From: a virus
Taxonomy: Duplodnaviria; Caudoviricetes
Reading direction: 5' to 3' (one strand)
Length of the DNA stretch: 64,000 bases
IMG/VR virus record: IMGVR_UViG_3300022309_000005
Coordinates: 8,806-72,805 of that record
Shown here: one piece after another, positions 22,940 through 63,245 of the stretch
Layout of the letters: every line of letters starts with the position of its first letter
Position numbering within the stretch: the first letter of the stretch is position 1
The notes under the pieces: generated by a model
The model's database searches: none
Told to the model about the DNA's origin: nothing
Seen by the model: the letters and a program-made list of their open reading frames with translations, nothing else
Made by a program: the position numbers and the translations under genes

Positions 22940-23100
22940 GTCTCCTTGGGTGTCGCGGTGTTCGTCTCGGGCTTCGGCGCGTACTGGAGCACGACCGGTC
23001 GGGCTGGCAGCCGGATCCGAGCGATCTCGTACGCGCGCCGCAGTTGCTCTTCGTACTCCAGCCTGGGCGGAACAGCGTCGTTCGACATATCGATCTTCAC
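22936..23100 (-). CDS. 54-aa hypothetical protein not in ORF track
   Basis: VKIDMSND...YAPKPETNTATPKET*, coupled on both sides; tail shared with 59077-59319. Confidence 0.55.
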   Translation of the reverse strand: MKIDMSNDAVPPRLEYEEQLRRAYEIARIRLPARPVVLQYAPKPETNTATPKET

Positions 23101-23432
23101 TTCGTCTCGCCCTCCCTCCGGATGACGACGGTCAACGCGCCGCCGTCCGCGCCCGCGTGCTCGAGCGGCTGGGTGGGCTTGCCCCAGCCCCGATCCAGGA
23201 GCGCCGACGCGGCCGAAACGCGCGCCGATGGCTGGGCCTCTTCGTTCTGGGCGATCTCGACCAGGGTGCGGATGGCGACCTCGGTGTGTTCCCGCGCGAG
23301 CTCGCGGACGGGGCCGGCAGTCTTTGGCCGCCCGCTTGGGTTGCCGCTTTGGCCGGGCTGGAACGGCCGGCCAACGGGCATCTTCCGTGCGGCTGATTCG
23401 TCGCTGTTAGCTGGCGTCGGGTTGTCCGCCAT
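23097..23432 (-). CDS. terS: Terminase small subunit
   Basis: GRPFQPGQSGNPSGRPK...RVSAASALLDRGWGKPTQ motif upstream of terL. Confidence 0.85.
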   Translation of the reverse strand: MADNPTPANSDESAARKMPVGRPFQPGQSGNPSGRPKTAGPVRELAREHTEVAIRTLVEIAQNEEAQPSARVSAASALLDRGWGKPTQPLEHAGADGGALTVVIRREGETK

Positions 23433-23438
23433 TGGGCT

Positions 23439-23467
23439 ACCATGCATGACCATGCCCTACGTGTCAA
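23439..23467 (-). promoter_or_regulatory. Promoter TTGACA-N17-CATGGT for terS/late operon
   Basis: Exact -35, 17-nt spacer, ATG 6 nt after -10 (leaderless). Confidence 0.7.
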
Positions 23468-23823
23468 GCCCGGCGCTGCCCGAGCCTCGGCGGCGTGGGC
23501 TTCTCGCCGCCCCCGCCGATGATCCGGCCGGTGTTCGTCTCGACGGCCACGGCGCGGTCATCGTAGATGCGGGCGAACCTCGGGTGCTTGATGTTCGTGG
23601 CCTCCAGCTCGATGCCCAGGTGGAGCTTCGTCCAGGCCCGGATCGCGCGCACCGCCGCTGGAGTGTTGGCCCTGGCGCTGAAGATGACCACCTCGATCCC
23701 GTCGTCGAGCCAGCCCTTCACGCGCTCCAGCATCAACGGGATGGGGTCGCCGATGATGGTTGGGCCTCGGAATCCCGTGTACTTGGCGAACGTCCCGTCG
23801 AGGTCGAGCGCATAGGTGGGCAT
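23464..23823 (-). CDS. Stand-alone HAD-superfamily phosphatase
   Basis: Motifs DLDGT, FSAR, K, YDDR. Confidence 0.82.
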   Translation of the reverse strand: MPTYALDLDGTFAKYTGFRGPTIIGDPIPLMLERVKGWLDDGIEVVIFSARANTPAAVRAIRAWTKLHLGIELEATNIKHPRFARIYDDRAVAVETNTGRIIGGGGEKPTPPRLGQRRA

Positions 23824-23872
23824 GCGTGGCATATACCACCGTAGAGGCCGGCCGAAAAGCGCGCACGGGCAC

Positions 23873-23901
23873 TTGACACCGATTCTTAATCCGCGTATGG
23901 T
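23873..23901 (+). promoter_or_regulatory. Strong sigma70 promoter TTGACA-N17-TATGGT of the early cassette operon
   Basis: Near-consensus; GATT-N3-AATC inverted repeat in spacer; conserved at 60470-60498. Confidence 0.85.
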
Positions 23902-23948
23902 GCTGTTCGTAGGGCGGCGCAGGGGCCGCCCGGGATGGAGCGGACGAC

Positions 23949-24167
23949 ATGGCGACCACGACGATGATCAACCCGAAGTTCTACGTCGCGCGCCGTGACA
24001 CCCGCTGGGACGTGTACCCACAGCGGGAACCGGAAACCGTGGTGGCCCGCGACTGGCATGGCTTCTGGGCGTACGCCCCAGGCGTGGGCTGGTTTAAGTC
24101 GCCCGCGTCCTACGTGACGTTCCAAGAGATCACCGAAGCCGAGGCGCTCGCGCTGGCCCAGGCGTAG
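23949..24167 (+). CDS. Early cassette ORF, slot 1 (B)
   Basis: GGAG SD; aromatic-rich 72 aa; unrelated to 60547-60804. Confidence 0.75.
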   Translation: MATTTMINPKFYVARRDTRWDVYPQREPETVVARDWHGFWAYAPGVGWFKSPASYVTFQEITEAEALALAQA

Positions 24168-24187
24168 CCCGCCGGTCCGCCGGCCCT

Positions 24188-24240
24188 CTCGCCGCCCGAG
24201 ACGTAGGGGGCGCCCGGTTCGAGACCGGGAGGCGAGTTCA
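24188..24240 (+). ncRNA. tRNA-like element (acceptor stem, D-like hairpin, T-arm, no anticodon arm)
   Basis: CTCGCC/GGCGAG, GCCC/GGGC, CCCGG-TTCGAGA-CCGGG, 3' TTCA; conserved at 60827-60878. Confidence 0.6.
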
Positions 24241-24254
24241 CGAAGCGAGGAGGG

Positions 24255-24626
24255 ATGAGCATGACGAAGACGACCACGAACAGCCCCACGCCTGGACCGT
24301 GGGTGTTCAAGAAGCTGAGCGATGTTGACCAGATCCGCCGGGTCATCCGAGGCAACGGCGATACGATCAACGTGGCGGCTCAATCCCAATGGTTCGACAG
24401 CTCGACGCCAGAGGCGGAGGCCGACGCGAATTGGCAGCTCATGGCGTCGGCGCAGCAGCAGGCGGAAGCGCTGAAGTCCATCTTGCAGCGCGCCGAGGGG
24501 CTCCGCAACGCTCTGGCGCTGGTCTGCGGCTCCGGCGCGGTGCCGGCGAAGTTGAGGCGCCCGCTGGAGGCGGTGGCCGGCGAGGTCGAGGAGATTCGGG
24601 CGACGGCCGAGAAGGCGCTCGGGTAG
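24255..24626 (+). CDS. Early cassette ORF, slot 2 (TPGPW...ANWQLMASA phage family)
   Basis: GGAGGG SD; TPGPW motif. Confidence 0.78.
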   Translation: MSMTKTTTNSPTPGPWVFKKLSDVDQIRRVIRGNGDTINVAAQSQWFDSSTPEAEADANWQLMASAQQQAEALKSILQRAEGLRNALALVCGSGAVPAKLRRPLEAVAGEVEEIRATAEKALG

Positions 24627-24666
24627 CCCCTCCCCGGCCGCTGACGCCGGGGGACAGGAGACGAAC

Positions 24667-24831
24667 TTGAAGACCGAGAACGACGCGGATCTTTGGGCGC
24701 AGTGGCTAGCGCACGGCAGGGGCGGAACGTGCGCGGCATGCGAGCGCGCGGCGCGGGCGATGGACTACCGTGGGTGCTGCACGGAATGGGTGGCGAAGTT
24801 CGAGGCGGCCGGAGCTGGTCCGCGCTGCTGA
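24667..24831 (+). CDS. 54-aa Cys-rich early ORF (TTG start, not in ORF track)
   Basis: AGGAG SD; MKTENDADLWAQW...CAACE...GCCTEW. Confidence 0.55.
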   Translation: MKTENDADLWAQWLAHGRGGTCAACERAARAMDYRGCCTEWVAKFEAAGAGPRC

Positions 24832-24909
24832 GCTGACCCGTTCGTCCGGCCGGGTGACGCCGGACCACCACGCCAGCACATCGCCCGGTGGCGCGGGCCT
24901 GGAGAAGCG

Positions 24910-25290
24910 ATGAACTACCTGAACTGCACGCCGCACGCTGTTGTCATCTACGACGCCGATGGCAAGAACATCCTCGCGACGATCCCGCCGAGCCAGTGGA
25001 CGATCCGCGTCCAGACCCCGCCCCAGCGCCTGGTCCGGACGGTCGAGATCGAGGGCGTGAGTGTGCCCGTCGTCTCGGCCCAGGACTTCGAGACCGGCGA
25101 GGTGACCGGCGTCCCGCCCTGTGACGAGTTCGAGCAGGGGCGCACGGCCCTGATCGTGGGCGTCATCGGCGCCGAGGCCGTGGACAGCCTCTGGAACGGC
25201 CCCGTGTACGTTACGGACACCGGGCCGGAGTCCGCGGTGCGCGACTTGAGCGGGCGGATCCTTGGGGTGCGGCGGTTGCAGCTCCCGTAG
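24910..25290 (+). CDS. NxTPH-family protein, candidate Crn4-like ring nuclease (anti-CRISPR type III)
   Basis: N-terminal NCTPH and C-terminal RDxxGRIxG motifs; the link to Crn4 is from memory. Confidence 0.5.
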   Translation: MNYLNCTPHAVVIYDADGKNILATIPPSQWTIRVQTPPQRLVRTVEIEGVSVPVVSAQDFETGEVTGVPPCDEFEQGRTALIVGVIGAEAVDSLWNGPVYVTDTGPESAVRDLSGRILGVRRLQLP

Positions 25291-25310
25291 CTGGGGCGGG
25301 GTCGCTGGAC

Positions 25311-25363
25311 GGGCGGCACCGTGCCGCCCGAGACGCCCCCGGGAGGGGGCAGGAGATCGAGAC
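25311..25363 (+). repeat. Double-hairpin spacer; 3' part resembles a solitary type I-C CRISPR repeat
   Basis: GGGCGGC-N5-GCCGCCC then GAC-GCCCCC-GGGA-GGGGGC-AGGAGATCGAGAC; recurs at 61415-61466. Confidence 0.5.
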
Positions 25364-25364
25364 G

Positions 25365-25835
25365 ATGACCATCCCCGCCACAGCAGCCCGCGAAGCGGTG
25401 CTGGCGATTCACCGGCGCATGGCCGCGGCCCTGGACGCTGTCAGAGATTCGGCGCTCGAGGAGCTGATGCCCAGCGCAGCCGCGCCACCGCCGCCCCCAT
25501 TAGAGGGGCCGGGGCTGGCGCAGGCGGCTGCGCCCATGCTGGATCGGCTCTCGGAAATCGAACTCACCGCGAGCGCTCCCGTGGTGCCCGATGCCCTCAT
25601 GGTGCCCATGCCAGTCGGGCAACTGCGCGCCCTCCGACGCGCACTCTCCGCAGAGGATGAACGGGCGCGGAAGGATCGCGCACTTCGCGAGCGGTGGATC
25701 GGTCAGCTCGTGCTGGCGCGCGCAGAACTGGTGTTCGTGAGCCAGGAGGAGGCGGTCCGCCGCGCCCGGGGGCGCATTCACACGGTGGCGTGCGAGCTGA
25801 TCGACGGGACCTCCGAGCTGGGGTCCACGCCATGA
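25365..25835 (+). CDS. Early protein, C-terminal part homologous to 61939-62487
   Basis: Shared EGPGLA...RKDRALRERW...AVRRARGRIH. Confidence 0.75.
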   Translation: MTIPATAAREAVLAIHRRMAAALDAVRDSALEELMPSAAAPPPPPLEGPGLAQAAAPMLDRLSEIELTASAPVVPDALMVPMPVGQLRALRRALSAEDERARKDRALRERWIGQLVLARAELVFVSQEEAVRRARGRIHTVACELIDGTSELGSTP

Positions 25836-26134
25836 CCGCGCCCGCCCTCGGAAGCCGCATCCGCCGCGCCCGCGAGGCCGCCGGCATGGGCCTGCGGGAG
25901 CTGGCGCGCGCCGCCGGCAAGTCCGCCGCGTGGCTGTCGCGGCTGGAGCGCGGCGAGAACATGGGGGCCAGCGTGCGCACGATCCAGACGTTCGCCCGGC
26001 TGCTGCGGATCGACCCGGACGCGCTCCTGCTCGCCGCCGGGAAGGTCCCGCCGGACGTGCTCCGGCGCCTCCAGGACAACCCTGGCCTGTGTGAGATGGT
26101 CCGGCTCTGGGCCGACAAGGAGAAGACACGATGA
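25832..26134 (+). CDS. XRE/Cro-C1-type HTH transcriptional regulator
   Basis: LGSRIRRAREAAGMGLRELARAAGKSAAWLSRLERG. Confidence 0.9.
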   Translation: MTAPALGSRIRRAREAAGMGLRELARAAGKSAAWLSRLERGENMGASVRTIQTFARLLRIDPDALLLAAGKVPPDVLRRLQDNPGLCEMVRLWADKEKTR

Positions 26135-26451
26135 GCGATTCTGTTTGGTGCGACGGATGCGGACGCGAAGAGGATCGACGGATGCGCGCCATAGCCCCCG
26201 AGGGCTGGACGTTCCTGCGCCTGCGCTCCGGGGAGACCGGCAAAGAGGAGTCCTACGTCTACGCCTGCTCGCCAGCGTGCAGGGCCGCGCTCGACGCGCG
26301 ATGGGAGCCGGGGCCCGGTCGCCTCGAGCCGACCCTGGGTGAACTGGCGTTGCGCGCCGAGTACCGCCGGCCGCTCGACGAGCTGTTGCGGGCCCTGGAC
26401 GAGTTCCGCGCGGCGATCCAGGACGCGGCCAAGGATGGCCGACAGCCATGA
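26131..26451 (+). CDS. CxxC zinc-binding hypothetical protein
   Basis: CDGC...CSPAC; ATGA coupling. Confidence 0.7.
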   Translation: MSDSVWCDGCGREEDRRMRAIAPEGWTFLRLRSGETGKEESYVYACSPACRAALDARWEPGPGRLEPTLGELALRAEYRRPLDELLRALDEFRAAIQDAAKDGRQP

Positions 26452-26744
26452 CCGCCCCCCGCCAGCCCCGCCCCCCGTGTGCCGAGGTGCTCGCCGATGG
26501 CCAGGCGTGCGGGCGCCCGGTCAAGTGGGGGAGCATCTGCCCGGCGTGCTACCAGTTCCGGCGGCGGCACGAGAAGGCCGCCGCGGAGGGCCGCGAGCTC
26601 GCCACCTACCGCGCCGGGGAGCCGCAGACGACGATCACGATCTCCCTGCCGGAGAGCATGGCCGCGCGGCTGGACGTCATCGCCGGCAGGCGCGGGCGCA
26701 GCGCCCTGCTCCGCACCTGGATCGAGCCCCACCTCCGGGGCTGA
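26448..26744 (+). CDS. Zinc finger plus ribbon-helix-helix regulator ending the early operon
   Basis: CxxC N-terminus; QTTITISLPESMAARLDVIAG-RGRSALLR; homolog 62484-62780. Confidence 0.75.
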   Translation: MTAPRQPRPPCAEVLADGQACGRPVKWGSICPACYQFRRRHEKAAAEGRELATYRAGEPQTTITISLPESMAARLDVIAGRRGRSALLRTWIEPHLRG

Positions 26745-26745
26745 T

Positions 26746-26889
26746 CTACCGACCCTCCCCGTCGTCCCCATCGTCCCCGTCGTCCGGCGGGCGCATGCAC
26801 CACTCCCAAGCCAAGTCTGCGGCGGCGCGGGCGGAGAAGACGCACACCACGATGGCTACGGCCACGAGCGCCAAGTCCTCGCCCGTCAT
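26746..26889 (-). CDS. Small membrane protein with acidic tail
   Basis: TM then AWEWCMRPPDDGDD; homolog 62782-62919. Confidence 0.65.
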   Translation of the reverse strand: MTGEDLALVAVAIVVCVFSARAAADLAWEWCMRPPDDGDDGDDGEGR

Positions 26890-27458
26890 GGCGGCCCCAG
26901 GAGCGGGAGCTGGCCGCCATCGACGAACGAGAGATCTGCGGGCCGGTCCTGCGTCGGCCACGTCAGCAGCACGCACCCGAACGGCGGCGAGGAGTTCCAC
27001 CGCTTGCCCTCGGGCACCTCCGGCGTACCGAACTGTGTCCGGTTGGCGAGGAAGCGCGTCAACAGGTACGGCGCGGCGCCCCTGTCTCGCCACGGCTCGA
27101 CAAGCGTTTGCCACCAGGGTTGCTCCGTCCGGCACCCCGGGACGAGCATCACCACCTCGGCCCGGCTTCGCCACGCCTTCGCCACCCATGGGGCGATGCT
27201 CAAGAACGGAGGGTTGCACCAGACCCGCTCGCCGTCCCACCGCTGGAGCAGGCCATCATCCTGTCGCGTCCAGAATCGGCCGATGATCTTTGCAGCGGGC
27301 GAGCGCGGATCGCTCGCCACGTCTATGGTGAACCGGTGCCGGGCGTGCAGCTCGGAGATCAGCGCTCGCGGCGTGTACCGCTCGTCCGCCTCGAGGTCCC
27401 CACGTCCGTTGACGGACTGCTGGGGATGGTTCTTGGCCTTCACGCCTTGCAAGCCCAT
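26886..27458 (-). CDS. Phage Dam-like N6-adenine DNA methyltransferase
   Basis: DERYTP, FTIDVAS, VWCNPPF, PGCRTEQPWW motifs. Confidence 0.85.
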   Translation of the reverse strand: MGLQGVKAKNHPQQSVNGRGDLEADERYTPRALISELHARHRFTIDVASDPRSPAAKIIGRFWTRQDDGLLQRWDGERVWCNPPFLSIAPWVAKAWRSRAEVVMLVPGCRTEQPWWQTLVEPWRDRGAAPYLLTRFLANRTQFGTPEVPEGKRWNSSPPFGCVLLTWPTQDRPADLSFVDGGQLPLLGPP

Positions 27459-37958: not shown

Positions 37959-38301
37959 GCAGGCGAGAAGGATGCCGCGGGAAGAGTTCCTGCGCAGGAT
38001 GCTGGTGCTCGTCGAGCAGTTGTCGGACGTGCATGCAACCGGCCGCAGCGTCGAGGGGATCGGCAAGCCGCTGAGGGACGAAGCCGAGGCCCTGGTCGGG
38101 TACAAGGCGCATCACCTCATCGAGATGCTGGAGGTCCCGCCCCGTATCTGCGCCAGGTGCGGAAGCCTGCACCACGGCTGGCAGGCGGTGTGCGGACGCT
38201 GCCAGGAGGAGGGGGCCGAGGCCAAGAAGAGGGCCGAGTTGCGAGCCGAGATCGAAGCCGAGGTCCGCGCCGAACTGGCGCAGAAGGGCGGCGCGCAGTG
38301 A
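37951..38301 (+). CDS. CxxC zinc-finger protein, homolog of 2161-2514
   Basis: CARCG...CGRC. Confidence 0.75.
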   Translation: MGEQARRMPREEFLRRMLVLVEQLSDVHATGRSVEGIGKPLRDEAEALVGYKAHHLIEMLEVPPRICARCGSLHHGWQAVCGRCQEEGAEAKKRAELRAEIEAEVRAELAQKGGAQ

Positions 38302-39194
38302 GCGAGCGAGGACAGAAGAAGGGCGCCGGGCTGGTCTTCGGCCTCTCGCGCGAGGGCTACGACGGCGATCCGGCGGACCACTGGAGCACGATCAAGACGA
38401 TGGACCGGAGCCCGGCCCACTACCTCGCCGCGGAGGCTCAGGGGACGCCGGACACGGACGCCCGGAAGGTCGGGCGGGCCGTCCACCTTGCGGTCCTGGA
38501 GCCGGAGCGGTACGGGGGCGAGGTCGCGGTCTGGTCCGGGAAGGTGCGCAACGGCCGCGCCTGGGAGGAGTTCCAGGCCGCCAACGCCGGCAAGGAGATC
38601 TTGACCCAGCGCGAGGCCGCCCACGTCTCGGCGATCCAGCGAGCGGTCCGGGGCTCCCTGATGGCGCGACCCTACATCGCCGGCGGGCGAGCCGAGGTGT
38701 CCATGTTCTGGGGCTACCACGAGCTCGACCCGGCGACGTGGCTCCCCGGGTGGGCGCCCATCCGCCTCAAGGGCCGGGTCGACTACGTGACCGACGAGGT
38801 GCTCGTGGACCTGAAGACGACCCGGGACGCGAGCCCGGCCGGCTTCGGGCGCGAGGCCCTGCGCTACGGCTACCACGTCCAGGCGGCCCTCTACGCGGAC
38901 GGCTACGAGGCCGCGACCGGGACGCGCCTCCCGTTCGTGCTCGTGGCGGTGGAGAGCGCCCCTCCGCACGTGGTCCAGGTGTACGGGGTGCCGGACCACT
39001 ACCTCGAGGCCGGCCGGGACGCCTACCGGGCGATGATCCGGCGGCTGGCGATGTGCCGGGCGGCGAACCAGTGGCCGGGGTACTGCGAGGTGCCCATGGA
39101 GCTGGAGCTGCCGAAGTGGAGCGGCCTGGACGATGACGAGGAGGACATCTCTGATCTTGATCTCGGCTTCCAGGAGGAGGGCGGCGATGCCTAG
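38298..39194 (+). CDS. RecE/exonuclease VIII-like PD-(D/E)XK exonuclease
   Basis: GRAVHLAVLEP, KGRVDYV...VDLKTT, YGYHVQAALYADG. Confidence 0.88.
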   Translation: MSERGQKKGAGLVFGLSREGYDGDPADHWSTIKTMDRSPAHYLAAEAQGTPDTDARKVGRAVHLAVLEPERYGGEVAVWSGKVRNGRAWEEFQAANAGKEILTQREAAHVSAIQRAVRGSLMARPYIAGGRAEVSMFWGYHELDPATWLPGWAPIRLKGRVDYVTDEVLVDLKTTRDASPAGFGREALRYGYHVQAALYADGYEAATGTRLPFVLVAVESAPPHVVQVYGVPDHYLEAGRDAYRAMIRRLAMCRAANQWPGYCEVPMELELPKWSGLDDDEEDISDLDLGFQEEGGDA

Positions 39195-59695: not shown

Positions 59696-60030
59696 GGCTT
59701 CGTCTCGCCCTCCCGCCGGATGACGACGGTCAACGCCCCGCCGTCCGCGCCCGCGTGCTCGAGCGGCTGGGTGGGCTTGCCCCAGCCCCGATCCAGGAGC
59801 GCCGACGCGGCCGAAACGCGCGCCGATGGCTGGGCCTCTTCGTTCTGGGCGATCTCGACCAGGGTGCGGATGGCGACCTCGGTGTGTTCCCGCGCGAGCT
59901 CGCGGACGGGGCCGGCAGTCTTTGGCCGCCCGCTTGGGTTGCCGCTTTGGCCGGGCTGGAACGGCCGGCCAACGGGCATCTTCCGTGCGGCTGATTCGTC
60001 GCTGTTAGCTGGCGTCGGGTTGTCCGCCAT
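59692..60030 (-). CDS. terS: Terminase small subunit (B)
   Basis: Identical to 23097-23432 except the C-terminal end. Confidence 0.85.
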   Translation of the reverse strand: MADNPTPANSDESAARKMPVGRPFQPGQSGNPSGRPKTAGPVRELAREHTEVAIRTLVEIAQNEEAQPSARVSAASALLDRGWGKPTQPLEHAGADGGALTVVIRREGETKP

Positions 60031-60422
60031 TGGGCTACCATGCATGACCATGCCCTACGTGTCAAGCCCGGCGCTGCCCGAGCCTCGGCGGCGTGGGCTT
60101 CTCGCCGCCCCCGCCGATGATCCGGCCGGTGTTCGTCTCGACGGCCACGGCGCGGTCATCGTAGATGCGGGCGAACCTCGGGTGCTTGATGTTCGTGGCC
60201 TCCAGCTCGATGCCCAGGTGGAGCTTCGTCCAGGCCCGGATCGCGCGCACCGCCGCTGGAGTGTTGGCCCTGGCGCTGAAGATGACCACCTCGATCCCGT
60301 CGTCGAGCCAGCCCTTCACGCGCTCCAGCATCAACGGGATGGGGTCGCCGATGATGGTTGGGCCTCGGAATCCCGTGTACTTGGCGAACGTCCCGTCGAG
60401 GTCGAGCGCATAGGTGGGCATG
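59738..60422. repeat. 685-bp perfect direct repeat, copy 2
   Basis: Identical to 23140-23824 at offset 36598. Confidence 0.88.
60062..60421 (-). CDS. HAD phosphatase (second copy)
   Basis: Identical to 23464-23823. Confidence 0.82.
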   Translation of the reverse strand: MPTYALDLDGTFAKYTGFRGPTIIGDPIPLMLERVKGWLDDGIEVVIFSARANTPAAVRAIRAWTKLHLGIELEATNIKHPRFARIYDDRAVAVETNTGRIIGGGGEKPTPPRLGQRRA

Positions 60423-60469
60423 AGTGGCATATACCACCGTAGAGGCCGGCCGAAAAGCGCGCACGGCAC

Positions 60470-60498
60470 TTGACACCGATTCTTAATCCGTGTATGGT
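60470..60498 (+). promoter_or_regulatory. Strong early promoter TTGACA-N17-TATGGT (A)
   Basis: Same as 23873-23901. Confidence 0.85.
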
Positions 60499-60546
60499 GC
60501 CTTTCGTGGGGCGGCACTGGGGCCGCCCGGGATGGAGCGGAGCGAG

Positions 60547-60804
60547 ATGACCTGCAACGTGACCTACGACGCGGCGACCGGAAGCGCGAAAGTAGCGGTG
60601 ACTGCGGCCGAGCTGGAGCGCATGGGGCGCATGTACTTTGGCCCAGCAACACAGATCCATTGGTCGGCAGAGGATGCATGCATTTGGCACGCGTTCCTGC
60701 GCGGAGGCAAGGCTGGCGACCGGATTCACGTCTCCGTGGTGAAGGCCGAGAGCGGCGACGTGATCATGTCGTTCGATACCGAGTTGAGGCAGCCCAACAA
60801 CTAG
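60547..60804 (+). CDS. Early cassette ORF, slot 1 (A)
   Basis: GGAG SD; unrelated to 23949-24167. Confidence 0.7.
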   Translation: MTCNVTYDAATGSAKVAVTAAELERMGRMYFGPATQIHWSAEDACIWHAFLRGGKAGDRIHVSVVKAESGDVIMSFDTELRQPNN

Positions 60805-60826
60805 CCCCCGCCGGTCCGCCGGCCCT

Positions 60827-60878
60827 CTCGCCGCCCGAGACGTAGGGGCGCCCGGTTCGAGGCCGGGAGGCGAGTTCA
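60827..60878 (+). ncRNA. tRNA-like element, second copy
   Basis: Stems identical to 24188-24240; the two differences lie in loops. Confidence 0.6.
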
Positions 60879-60896
60879 CGAAGCGAAGCCAGGAGG

Positions 60897-61379
60897 ATGC
60901 GCATGGCGGAGATCACGCGGTACGCACAGAAGGCGGACGGCTCCAGAAACGTGGGCGTGCAGATCGGCGCGGTGTCGGTCCTGTTCCAGCCGTCCGGCCC
61001 CGAGCACGACGCGGACGCTGAGCGCCTCGCCGAGCAGGTTGCGGGCGCGGCTGATCACCTCGCGCAGCTCGGGTTGGATGTGGCCAACAAGAGCGCCAGC
61101 ATCGCGGATCTCCGCCGCCGCGTCGAGGCGTCCGAAGCCCGGCTGAGCGCATCGCTCGACGGCAAGCGGCGCTTCTTCGGTCCCGTCCTGGTGAAGCCGA
61201 ACACGGATGGAGACTGGGGCGGGACGGTGTGGGCGCTCGACCCTGAGAAGCAAGAGGGCGGGCGGGGCATCATGTTCGCGAGCCTGGCGGAGCTGCGCCT
61301 GGAGCACCCGGAGCTGTGGCCCATCGGCGTCATGGACGGCGGGATCCTCATGGACGCCTGGACGATGTTGCCCAAGTAG
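60897..61379 (+). CDS. Early cassette ORF, slot 2 (A)
   Basis: AGGAGG SD; unrelated to 24255-24626. Confidence 0.72.
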   Translation: MRMAEITRYAQKADGSRNVGVQIGAVSVLFQPSGPEHDADAERLAEQVAGAADHLAQLGLDVANKSASIADLRRRVEASEARLSASLDGKRRFFGPVLVKPNTDGDWGGTVWALDPEKQEGGRGIMFASLAELRLEHPELWPIGVMDGGILMDAWTMLPK

Positions 61380-61414
61380 CCCCTCCCCGGCCGCTGACGC
61401 CGGGGCTGACTGAC

Positions 61415-61466
61415 GGGCGGCAACGGGCCGCCCGAGACGCCCCCGGGAGGGGGCAGGGAGCGAGAC
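61415..61466 (+). repeat. Double-hairpin spacer / CRISPR-repeat-like unit, second copy
   Basis: Stems identical to 25311-25363, first loop differs. Confidence 0.5.
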
Positions 61467-61467
61467 G

Positions 61468-61671
61468 ATGCGGTACGAGATCGAATTCATGGACGAAAAG
61501 CAGTTTTGGATCGTCGATTCTGATGAGGAGTTGCGCGTTGGCGACATCATCGAGACCGGACAGCAAGAGCTTCGGGTAGCTGGCCGGAGAGCGCTCGCCA
61601 CGAAGAAGATCGTCGGCTTCAACGAGTACCGAGTTGAAGCTTTCAGGCTGCGCTGCGTGAAGGTGGACTGA
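61468..61671 (+). CDS. Early cassette ORF (67 aa, beta-rich)
   Basis: GGGAG SD; lower-GC codon usage. Confidence 0.7.
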   Translation: MRYEIEFMDEKQFWIVDSDEELRVGDIIETGQQELRVAGRRALATKKIVGFNEYRVEAFRLRCVKVD

Positions 61672-61672
61672 C

Positions 61673-61936
61673 ATGGCCCATTCCGACACTTTGTCGCCAC
61701 ATGGATCTTGGCCGCTCAAGGTTTCTGGAACTGTCTGGCGATCCGATATGCCGGATGATCCGCCGGACAGAATCGAGGAGAACGAAGGCCCGTGCAGCAA
61801 TCCACACGGTCGGACTCCGGACGAGATCTATGCCTTGCTCGTGGCCTGGTACGGACCCACGGCGTGCGCGGACTTCCTCGCCGATGGCGTGATGTTCCGC
61901 TATCGCAACGGGAAGCGCACCGAGGGGGTTTGGTGA
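61673..61936 (+). CDS. Early cassette ORF
   Basis: Adjacent coupling; GTTP-like GRTPDEIY motif. Confidence 0.6.
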   Translation: MAHSDTLSPHGSWPLKVSGTVWRSDMPDDPPDRIEENEGPCSNPHGRTPDEIYALLVAWYGPTACADFLADGVMFRYRNGKRTEGVW

Positions 61937-61938
61937 CT

Positions 61939-62487
61939 ATGACCTCCCCATCCCCAGCGGCCCCGCTGAAGCCCGGAGATCGCGTGCGCCTGCCGAGCGG
62001 GCGTGAGGCGACGCTGCATCACATCCACGTCCCCGGCCCGCCCGATGGGGCTCCTCCTGGGACGACGTTCCCGCGCGCATGGAAGGTCGCCGGCTTCCCG
62101 GAACTCACCTACTACGAGGACGAGCTGACGCTCGTGGAAGCCGCGCCCCCGCAGCCCCCAGTAGAGGGGCCGGGGCTGGCGGAGGCGGCGCGCCAGCTCG
62201 CCAATGCCGTAGTGGCATGGCCAGTCGGCCCGTTTGCGATGCAGACGCCAGAGGGCGAGCGCGTCTGGTGTGCCCTGGGCATCCTTGGCCGCGCCCTCGC
62301 CGCCGAGGAGGCGCGGGCACAGAAGGATCGCGCACTTCGCGAGCGGTGGCGTGATCGGCTCTTGCTGGCGCGCGCAGAGCTGGTCGTGGCAAGCCAGAAG
62401 GAGGCGGTCCGCCGCGCCAGGGGGCGTATTCACGATGTGGTGCGCGAACTGATCGCCGGAATCTCCGAGCTGGGGTCCGCGCCATGA
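61939..62487 (+). CDS. Early protein, C-terminal part homologous to 25365-25835
   Basis: Extra N-terminal LKPGDRVRL beta-domain-like segment. Confidence 0.72.
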   Translation: MTSPSPAAPLKPGDRVRLPSGREATLHHIHVPGPPDGAPPGTTFPRAWKVAGFPELTYYEDELTLVEAAPPQPPVEGPGLAEAARQLANAVVAWPVGPFAMQTPEGERVWCALGILGRALAAEEARAQKDRALRERWRDRLLLARAELVVASQKEAVRRARGRIHDVVRELIAGISELGSAP

Positions 62488-62780
62488 CCGCCCCCCGCCA
62501 GCCCCGCCCCCCGTGCGCCCAGGCGCTCTCAGACGGCCAGGCGTGCGGGCGCCCGGTCCGGTGGGGCACCGTCTGCCCGGCGTGCTACCAGTTCAACCGG
62601 CGGCACGCGAAGGCCGCCGCGGAGGGCCGCGAGCTCGCCACCTACCGCGCCGGCGAGCCGCAGACGACGATCACGATCTCCCTGCCGGAGAGCATGGCCG
62701 CGCGGCTGGACGTCATCGCCGGCAAGCGCGGCCGCAGCGCCCTGCTCCGGCGCTGGATCGATGACCAGCTCGGCCCCTGA
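62484..62780 (+). CDS. Zinc finger plus RHH regulator (A)
   Basis: Homolog of 26448-26744. Confidence 0.75.
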   Translation: MTAPRQPRPPCAQALSDGQACGRPVRWGTVCPACYQFNRRHAKAAAEGRELATYRAGEPQTTITISLPESMAARLDVIAGKRGRSALLRRWIDDQLGP

Positions 62781-62781
62781 T

Positions 62782-62919
62782 CTACCAGTCCCCGTCGTCG
62801 TCCCCGTCGTCCGGCGGGCGCATGCACCACTCCCACGCCCACCCGGCGGCGGCGCGGGCGAGGTAGACGACGGCGACCAGGACGGCGACGGTCAGCGTTG
62901 CGGCGGTTTCGTCGGTCAT
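62782..62919 (-). CDS. Small membrane protein (A)
   Basis: Homolog of 26746-26889. Confidence 0.65.
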   Translation of the reverse strand: MTDETAATLTVAVLVAVVYLARAAAGWAWEWCMRPPDDGDDDGDW

Positions 62920-63245
62920 GGCGGCCCCAAGAGTTGAAGACGTCCGCCCCCGAGCAGCGCGAGCGCGACCAGCCCGCCGACAGCGGATCGGACCCGAGCT
63001 GCGCGCCTGCGCTGCACCTGGCGATACACCGCCGCCAAGCTCATGTGCTCCTCTGAGCAGTACCGCCGCCGGCCCCGTGGGCAGTCCGCGCGGCACCATC
63101 CGCACCTGGGGCGGGAGCGGCGGGAGGGCTGGATGTAGTGCCCTTCGAGGTACTGGCGCGGGCGGCCCTCCCGGGGCTGCGGGTTGACGGAGCCGCAGCC
63201 GCAGCCGCAGTAGCGGAGGCCGGAGATCTTGACGGTGGCAATCAT
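62916..63245 (-). CDS. Cys-rich zinc-binding protein with TM tail
   Basis: YCGCGCG...CGWC...YCSEEH. Confidence 0.68.
   Translation of the reverse strand: MIATVKISGLRYCGCGCGSVNPQPREGRPRQYLEGHYIQPSRRSRPRCGWCRADCPRGRRRYCSEEHMSLAAVYRQVQRRRAARVRSAVGGLVALALLGGGRLQLLGPP

Follow-up and report, generated by a model that had tools for sequence, protein, structure and literature searches.

A hypervariable accessory operon with conserved linkers, most likely serving counter-defence, in a lineage of uncultivated phages

The DNA analysed here, a 64-kb window comprising bases 8806-72805 of the 72.8-kb IMG/VR virus record IMGVR_UViG_3300022309_000005, consists of two diverged phage genome copies of about 36.3 kb arranged head-to-tail (phage B, about 1-35500, and phage A, about 35500-64000, as defined by self-comparison). 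Each copy carries an operon in which one promoter serves a row of small genes, from six to nine per operon; between phages these genes differ, while the non-coding linkers that separate them are conserved. With moderate confidence, we take the locus to be a hypervariable accessory operon of this uncultivated ~36.3-kb phage lineage, most likely one for counter-defence, because one cargo gene (B4) is related to an enzyme that destroys a bacterial immune signal. The cargo appears to be exchanged by homologous recombination at the linkers, and the protein encoded at the end of the operon is a putative autorepressor.

Linkers are conserved while the genes between them differ

The original prediction for this window was that the two phages carry unrelated open reading frames (ORFs) behind the same strong promoter (72, 123, 54 and 126 aa in B; 85, 160, 67 and 87 aa in A), separated by spacers conserved almost base for base. 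All of this was borne out, with the ORFs lying at 23949-25290 in B and at 60547-61936 in A. The same promoter, TTGACA-17-TATGGT, stands ahead of both arrays, and a BLAST comparison of the window with itself aligned array B to array A in a series of discrete blocks. The first (23100-23951 in B, 59698-60549 in A; 98.6% identity) ends on an ATG. The second (24168-24248 and 60807-60886; 97.5%) extends from the base after a TAG stop codon to the ribosome-binding site of gene 2, the third (24623-24652 and 61376-61405; 100%) from around the stop codon of gene 2 through a hairpin, and the fourth (25308-25367 and 61412-61470; 93%) from a second hairpin to the following ATG. The last block (26445-26903 and 62481-62933; 86%) includes the gene for a terminal protein with four cysteines and a domain of the ribbon-helix-helix (RHH) type, hereafter the Cys4 + RHH protein. 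Taken together, the linkers of A and B differ by 6 mismatches in 171 bases, as against about 10% divergence in the structural genes. When all cargo proteins were compared with one another by BLASTP, they proved mutually unrelated except for a family comprising A5, B5 and C6 (the last from a third phage, described below) and the Cys4 + RHH protein itself.

Each linker opens with the stop codon of one gene and closes with the ribosome site of the gene that follows, in many cases taking in that gene's ATG as well. An ATG at 24255 in B and 60897 in A lies within the conserved linker (GGAGGGATG), and in the third phage its frame differs from that of the gene; translation of B2 and A2 probably begins at the second ATG, 24261 and 60903 respectively. 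We also considered the TAG that precedes linkers as a special signal and dropped the idea: since TAG is common throughout the phage, ending about 43% of confidently coding ORFs (29/67), it is merely part of the conserved block. That frequency is itself an oddity, as a genome of 70% G+C would be predicted to favour TGA.

The pattern extends to relatives. A third phage, C, was found through the HAD-like gene that neighbours the operon, as a 36,308-bp Logan contig (L024) from a separate data set whose length is exactly one phage unit. In C the promoter, leader, spacer 1 and spacer 2 are kept at 90-94% identity and every slot holds different genes. The 'double hairpin' and the CCCCGGC hairpin of the original prediction are adjacent in A and C, and are parted in B by an insertion of two genes, B3 and B4; B has two further genes, encoding an XRE-type helix-turn-helix (HTH) protein and a 106-aa protein, ahead of the RHH gene. 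A search with the promoter block matched sequencing runs from 14 studies; contigs of four studies were aligned to array B, and three of the aligned runs (X2, X3 and X5) gave informative joints or loose ends. In soil run X5, position 23951 is joined to 24168 across other sequence. In soil run X3, 24651 is joined to 25308 with CTGACT between them, exactly the form of A and C, which lack B3 and B4; the form with both genes occurs in this run as well. The freshwater-sediment run X2 joins 25367 to 25829, and its loose ends at 23946, 24168 and 24623 lead into coding sequence of another kind that likewise closes with TAG and then, as far as the displayed letters run, CC. The spacers are thus kept in a further relative, and contigs from other studies break at the same edges; a lack of spacer conservation in more relatives, which the original prediction had named as grounds for refutation, is not what these data show. 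Overall, at least four distinct cargoes occupy slot 1 and four occupy slot 2, with break points that agree within 0-3 bases and coincide with start or stop codons or with hairpin edges. One soil run also contains a form of B2 with an in-frame internal deletion of 183 nt (24271-24455), in which spacers 1 and 2a are intact on both sides.

Recurring linker motifs and a tRNA-like unit

As non-coding elements, the linker motifs are restricted to the operon. The leader hairpin H1 occurs twice in array B, in the leader and again, as H1', in spacer 2b, next to a further hairpin, H3 (GCCCCC-GGGA-GGGGGC); a 13-mer, GCCGCCCGAGACG, is common to spacers 1 and 2b. Where genes have been added, a linker motif recurs alongside: C2 of phage C is flanked by two copies of a tRNA-like unit (T unit), and B3 of phage B by the hairpin H2 and its paralogue H2'. 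The stems of these copies show compensating changes. The outer two pairs of H2' are altered on both sides (CC..GG to GT..AC), and the second T unit of C has drifted in sequence while keeping its structure: the first pair of the T-stem is changed from C-G to G-C, and a G/A mismatch at the seventh acceptor pair is repaired to C-G. When folds were compared with those of shuffled sequences, leader and spacer 2 gave z-scores of -2.05 to -2.86 in four of five cases, with spacer 2 of B at -2.05, that of A at -2.86 and that of C weaker, at -1.36.

In the T unit, an acceptor-like stem of 6 bp and a small hairpin are combined with a T-arm, which is stacked on the acceptor-like stem and has 5 bp in its own stem, closed by a G-C pair, and a TTCGA-type loop of 7 nt (TTCGAGA). 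Folded in isolation, three of the four copies take this shape as their minimum-energy structure. The unit has neither an anticodon arm nor a D-arm, only 16-20 nt with one small hairpin lying between the acceptor strand and the T-arm. ARAGORN did not call it a tRNA in default or mitochondrial mode, and at a lowered threshold proposed cloverleaves that were inconsistent between copies; in Rfam, no family, tRNA model or CRISPR direct-repeat model matched the linkers at the gathering score or at E<=10. The 'tRNA-like unit' of the original prediction therefore holds as regards the canonical T-arm and acceptor-like stem but goes unrecognised as a tRNA; we regard it as a tRNA-like element and not as a tRNA gene. 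Two pattern scans of the viral contigs of IMG/VR for the T unit gave no matches. A scan of JGI metagenomes gave 28, none of which has the flanks of spacer 1; those that could be identified are real tRNAs (some with introns) or coding sequence.

Cargo exchange resembles homologous shuffling

The original prediction had described the array as integrase-free and its spacers as recombination handles. In the 72.8-kb record there was no match to PF00589 (Phage_integrase) or PF00239 (Resolvase), while the controls were positive. The early region of phage A encodes a RecE-like exonuclease VIII (38157-39194, plus strand; phrog_412, E 5e-65; DUF3799 PDDEXK). The genes adjoining it belong to no family, and a partner annealing protein was not identified among them.

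Spacers 1, 2a and 2b are different sequences, each specific to its slot, and only motifs recur among them; between phages, each linker is homologous throughout, and the homology breaks off at codons and not at a fixed crossover point. Because the linkers are slot-specific and homologous from end to end, up to the codons, the exchange of cargo, judged by comparison of the arrays, looks like homologous recombination rather than crossover of the integron kind. Co-infecting relatives would recombine inside a linker and thereby swap intact reading frames, and since each linker runs from a stop codon to a ribosome site and ATG, a whole frame could be replaced without loss of expression. The phage's own RecE-like exonuclease probably assists. 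The reading of the spacers as handles thus gains support in that cargo is exchanged at spacer edges in relatives, as the population data also suggest; the original interpretation as a whole is partly supported.

The closest precedent is provided by the promoter-early stem-loops (PeSLs) of T4-type phages. These are conserved cassettes of about 100 bp that span a stop codon, a stem-loop, a Shine-Dalgarno (SD) sequence and a start codon (Arbiol et al. 2010, PMC2839356). The genes that they flank are small, non-essential ORFans, and 'modular shuffling' is mediated by the cassettes through proposed homologous recombination (PMC2839356; Comeau et al. 2014, PMC4122927); it is at the cassettes that close relatives differ by indels and replacements, and an extra gene brings an extra cassette copy (PMC2839356). 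In the operon described here, conserved stem-loop linkers running from stop codon to SD sequence or ATG likewise lie at the points of indel and replacement between relatives. There are also differences. Each PeSL has its own promoter, and there are some 50 copies per genome (PMC2839356, PMC4122927), whereas the linkers here have no sigma70-like promoter of their own, are served by a single promoter upstream of slot 1, are mostly slot-specific rather than dispersed in about 50 copies, and include the tRNA-like unit. Moreover, the phages that carry PeSLs are T4-type myoviruses, whereas the linkers described here belong to a 36-kb, 70% G+C phage of the Mx8 kind.

Cargo protein B4 is a homologue of Crn4b-type ring nucleases

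Structure prediction for the cargo, proposed as a check in the original prediction, paid off for B4. A model built from an alignment of 81 homologues (out of 455 representative ones) reached a predicted local distance difference test score (pLDDT) of 95. Searched with Foldseek, it found only Crn4 ring nucleases (best PDB 9r7b: E 3.7e-8, probability 1.00, TM scores 0.70/0.76), the next unrelated match having an E-value of 0.5. The family profile agreed (Crn4b, E 2e-17; Crn4a, E 9e-10). The PADLOC model Unk_01 ('sometimes fused to CARF') also matches B4, and Unk01 is an earlier name of Crn4 (PMC12830947). Structural neighbours of B4 in the ESM Atlas include SAVED/TIR fusion proteins. Among the 81 homologues, R111 is invariant, H9 nearly so (at least 90%) and T7 nearly invariant as well; these residues align with the NLTPH and VRD motifs of Crn4b. 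In Crn4, the corresponding Thr, His and Arg have been implicated in the binding of cyclic oligoadenylate (cOA) and in catalysis, and the Crn4b orthologues of a few phages and plasmids, themselves not assayed, have been described as likely anti-CRISPRs (Chi et al. 2025, PMC12830947).

By sequence and model, then, B4 is a Crn4b-type ring-nuclease homologue with the Crn4 fold. It resembles the solved Crn4 structures (PDB 9r7b, 9sma and 9qs9) in fold, family profile and conserved Thr/His/Arg, but is only about 26% identical to the solved Crn4b, and its cOA cleavage and substrate are predicted. Among cultured phages, B4 homologues occur in two Bacillus phages only, and the spacers were not found around two B4 homologues (L059 and L060) whose surroundings were inspected. 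As for the other cargo, Pfam, PHROGs and PADLOC offered no family except for B2, B4 and A3, a comparison with 15 billion proteins left the majority of cargo genes as singletons, and a search of the ESM Atlas with A2 gave nothing usable.

The operon is laid out like an acr-aca locus

The promoter of the operon is of the sigma70 type and is the sole match to the consensus at 10 or more of 12 positions in the 64-kb window, occurring once per phage copy. Between its hexamers lies an AT-rich palindrome, GATTCTTAATC, a candidate operator that is seen at no site other than the two promoters. At the other end of the operon, the same regulator, first described as a zinc-finger/RHH protein, closes the arrays of both phages (A6 and B8 are 86% identical) and also that of C; in B it has 98 aa, with four invariant cysteines, and the RHH_1 domain exceeds the Pfam cut-off in B8, A6 and C8. 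By analogy, the Cys4 + RHH protein is probably an autorepressor of the operon promoter. No relatives were found in a scan of IMG/VR, and a search of 5.8 billion proteins found one, encoded at the very start of a 2-kb contig, which hence has no array. A sequence search of the PDB returned nothing significant, and the structure model, with a pLDDT of 53, was not used.

In phage P22, the RHH repressors Arc and Mnt control ant in the immI region. A similar scheme can be proposed here, in which the host-type promoter would drive the operon, presumably early, and the terminal Cys4 + RHH protein would shut the promoter down, as Arc of P22 or the anti-CRISPR-associated (Aca) proteins do. The front genes are replaced wholesale from phage to phage as the non-coding linkers stay, and on the mRNA the linkers may act as protective 5' and 3' hairpins, as sites of regulator-dependent translational control and possibly as processing sites, either at the T unit or within the CTGACT stretch that separates H2 from H1'. 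Podophage T7 offers a further parallel: its early operon, transcribed by host RNA polymerase, starts with an anti-restriction gene, and its intercistronic hairpins are cut by RNase III to give stabilised pieces. Unlike T7, the linkers here show no long duplexes of the RNase III type, and their processing is conjectural.

The position of the array had been likened to that of anti-CRISPR (acr) operons, and the resemblance is sustained by the strong promoter with its palindrome, the variable small genes and the conserved terminal gene for a regulator of the DNA-binding type, whose binding is predicted. We know of no counterpart, in the acr operons described so far, of the N-terminal Cys4 module or of the tRNA-like unit. 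In a recently described case, the RHH-type protein Aca14 shares an operon with the ring nuclease Csx20 and is autorepressed through an AT-rich inverted repeat, and RNA hairpins bound by Aca proteins occur in the 5' untranslated regions and between the genes of acr-aca operons (bioRxiv 10.64898/2026.07.27.740549). The present operon likewise has a hairpin that immediately follows the predicted transcript start and is found again between genes, and a ring nuclease in its cargo (csx20-rhh there, Crn4b-like here). It differs from acr-aca loci in having no validated Acr among its cargo, in its longer arrays and in the exchange of genes at structured linkers. The description of the locus as an anti-defence array is accordingly plausible as regards B4 and the acr-aca layout, but no other cargo gene has a link to defence; a role of this kind for the remaining cargo would follow by analogy.

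Weighing the alternatives

Several observations count against the interpretation offered above. Towards C, the linkers (90-94% identity) do not exceed the coding backbone in conservation, which leaves constraint on them beyond shared ancestry unproven. Spacer 1 folds no better than its shuffles (z +0.25 to +0.83), the tRNA-like fold of the diverged T unit lies 2.7 kcal/mol above its minimum, and the stem changes are drawn from three or four sequences, too few for statistical covariation. No RNA run was among the runs listed for the promoter block. A link to defence was found for one of about 20 cargo genes, the rest being singletons without a family; the likeness of the Cys4 + RHH protein to Aca14 is one of description and not of sequence comparison. 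Finally, viral and genome collections scanned with the large terminase (TerL) yielded no phage above 55% identity and pointed to no host, so that cOA signalling in the host is conjectural.

Ordinary phage mosaicism could account for some of this, with the linkers being recently shared backbone between rare illegitimate events that were selected for in-frame outcomes at gene boundaries. We judge this unlikely, although it fares better than its competitors: the equality of linker and backbone identity in C, the lack of folding excess in spacer 1 and the absence of a recombinase from the record are all in keeping with it. It does not readily explain why slot 1 has at least four cargoes and slot 2 four with break points that are the same to within 0-3 bases, why insertions come with paralogous copies of linker motifs whose stems have changed in a compensatory way, or why the linkers of A and B are so much less diverged than the structural genes.

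It is improbable, too, that the operon has nothing to do with counter-defence and represents instead a module for immunity, antirepression or lysogenic conversion in the manner of P22 immI, or a set of prophage-expressed morons. The relation to Mx8 through the large terminase, the combination of an RHH regulator with a strong promoter, the inversion of the operon between replication and packaging genes and the many cargo genes of no known function would suit such a module. Against it stand the ring-nuclease homology of B4, the absence of an integrase, which leaves stable lysogeny without evident basis, and the fact that a single strong promoter is followed by small ORFan genes of extreme turnover, which is the signature of an acr-aca locus.

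The original prediction went further and called the array 'integron-like', a description we do not retain. As in this operon, the cassettes of an integron array are served by a single upstream promoter, their ORFs are interchangeable and lack promoters, and folded sites separate them. One might imagine a host recombinase, for example of the Xer type, acting on the hairpins or the T-arm to move units of an ORF with its site: the sites are palindromes with arms of 5-7 bp and 4-8 bp between them, the T-arm has the shape of a classic target of tyrosine integrases, C2 and B3 each resemble an ORF with one site copy, and the T units keep their structure as their sequence drifts, as attC sites do. Yet the phage has no tyrosine or serine recombinase, the type of site varies from slot to slot with no common attC-type site, the homology ends at codons and not at a fixed point in a palindrome, and the metagenome contigs contain no sign of circular cassettes or empty sites beyond what homologous exchange predicts. 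What the arrays display is allelic exchange in fixed slots, and not insertion at an attI site. We consider site-specific recombination very unlikely.

That the cargo of the two phages was created by the assembler from a mixed population is scarcely credible: the record is two unit lengths with neither host flanks nor integrase, and its copies share a near-identical 850-bp block, but the independent single-unit contig of C has the same architecture with other cargo, three further studies contain the same junctions, and joining A to B as a chimera would not yield the pattern of linkers and cargo.

The linkers may also be more than passive homology. One could picture them as a dedicated 'plug-and-play' system that dispenses with a recombinase. 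The RNA would then be cut slot by slot, at the T unit by RNase P or RNase Z or between the protective 3' and 5' hairpins, and the Cys4 + RHH protein would bind the H1 hairpin and gate the slots, such that an incoming ORF was at once expressed and regulated; the T units, with their structure kept under sequence drift, would be the phage counterpart of attC sites. This elaboration is doubtful at present. Were it true, the linkers could be hooks with which to harvest hitherto unknown counter-defence genes from metagenomes.

The locus is probably best described as PeSL-like homologous shuffling inside an acr-aca-like operon, known in outline and new as a combination. Two established ideas meet in it, regulatory linkers that steer shuffling and autoregulated anti-defence operons, and the phage lineage that unites them is high in G+C and remote from the T4 and Pseudomonas models. 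The presence of a ring-nuclease homologue beside about 20 orphan genes marks the latter as candidates for new counter-defence functions and provides a practical reason to assay them, while the short conserved linkers can be used as search hooks for more cargo in raw metagenome reads. The T unit is the most unusual part and provides a testable instance of possible tRNA-style punctuation of the mRNA between the cistrons of a phage operon.

Phage genomes, relatives and genomic context

The window has a G+C content of about 70%. The structural genes of B and A are 88-92% identical by self-BLAST, with many segments replaced. The 72.8-kb record is exactly two unit lengths, without host flanks and without an integrase, and its tandem arrangement may be genuine, as a heterodimer or concatemer, or may be a join made by the assembler between co-existing variants through the near-identical block at 23100-23951. 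Among cultured phages, Myxococcus phage Mx8 is closest by large terminase (52% identity). The contigs with the closest homologues of the small terminase gene, terS (59-71%), lack the array, and distant homologues of the HAD-like gene sit in unrelated phages. The lineage is a rare group of uncultivated soil and sediment phages, a population rather than a pair.

The operon occupies the plus strand and is inverted between minus-strand early genes and minus-strand packaging and structural genes. On one side, a Dam methylase and other early genes begin at 26886; on the other, the HAD-like gene, terS, terL and the structural genes follow from 23832 downwards. The HAD-like gene (23464-23832, minus strand), which adjoins the promoter, is optional, as two soil runs join 23471 to 23852 with 17 other bases in between. 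The coordinates of the features of both operons are collected in Table 1.

Table 1 Features of the operons of phages B and A, with positions in the 64-kb window
Feature	Position	Strand	Description
Promoter of array B	23873-23901	+	TTGACA-17-TATGGT; palindrome GATTCTTAATC at 23881-23891
Leader hairpin H1 of B	23912-23931	+	GGGCGGC-loop-GCCGCCC; few bases past predicted transcript start; fold z -2.6
Cargo B1	23949-24167	+	72 aa; slot 1; no known family
Spacer 1 of B	24168-24254	+	Hairpin 24171-24184; T unit 24188-24236 (T-arm 24213-24229); SD GGAGGG 24249-24254
Cargo B2	24261-24626	+	121 aa from probable corrected start (123-aa ORF); phrog_1273, function unknown
Spacer 2a of B	24627-24666	+	Hairpin H2 CCCCGGC-CGCTGAC-GCCGGGG, 24632-24652
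Cargo B3	24667-24831	+	54 aa; TTG start; within insertion not in A and C
H2' spacer of B	24832-24909	+	GTCCGGC-CGGGTGAC-GCCGGAC at 24844-24865; H2 paralogue, two compensatory pairs
Cargo B4	24910-25290	+	126 aa; Crn4b-type ring-nuclease homologue; T7, H9, R111 conserved
Spacer 2b of B	25291-25364	+	H1' 25311-25329; GAGACG motif; H3 25335-25350; SD AGGAG 25351-25355
B5	25365-25835	+	156 aa; C-terminal half common to A5 (55% over 125 aa); short motif common to C6
B6	25832-26134	+	XRE-type HTH regulator; in B and run X2, not in A or C
B7	26131-26451	+	106 aa; Cys-rich; no family
B8	26448-26744	+	98 aa; four invariant Cys, then RHH domain; conserved last gene
Promoter of array A	60470-60498	+	Hexamers and palindrome as in B
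Leader hairpin H1 of A	60509-60528	+	Coordinates checked
Cargo A1	60547-60804	+	85 aa
Spacer 1 of A	60805-60902	+	T unit 60827-60874
Cargo A2	60903-61379	+	158 aa from probable corrected start (160-aa ORF)
Spacer 2 of A, undivided	61380-61467	+	H2 61385-61405; CTGACT linker; H1' 61415-61433; H3 61439-61454; then SD
Cargo A3 + A4	61468-61936	+	67 aa + 87 aa; lower G+C (0.55, 0.61)
A5	61939-62487	+	182 aa; partial homologue of B5
A6	62484-62780	+	Cys4 + RHH regulator; 86% identical to B8

In B, the genes B6 and B7 are bracketed by an 11-bp direct repeat, GCCATGACCGC (25829-25839 and 26445-26455), which corresponds to an overlapping stop/start junction that is present once in A and C. The genes A3 and A4 (61468-61936) and C3 of the third phage (L024 8725-8982) have a G+C content of 0.55-0.61 and a G+C content at third codon positions clearly below that of the phage, which suggests recent import from another source. 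Lastly, in a 258-nt 'gap' past the second T unit of C lies an uncalled frame of 63 codons with a TTG start (L024 9137-8946, minus strand); its product has the look of a zinc ribbon (CPKC...CGGC), and its stop codon overlaps an ATG of the following gene.

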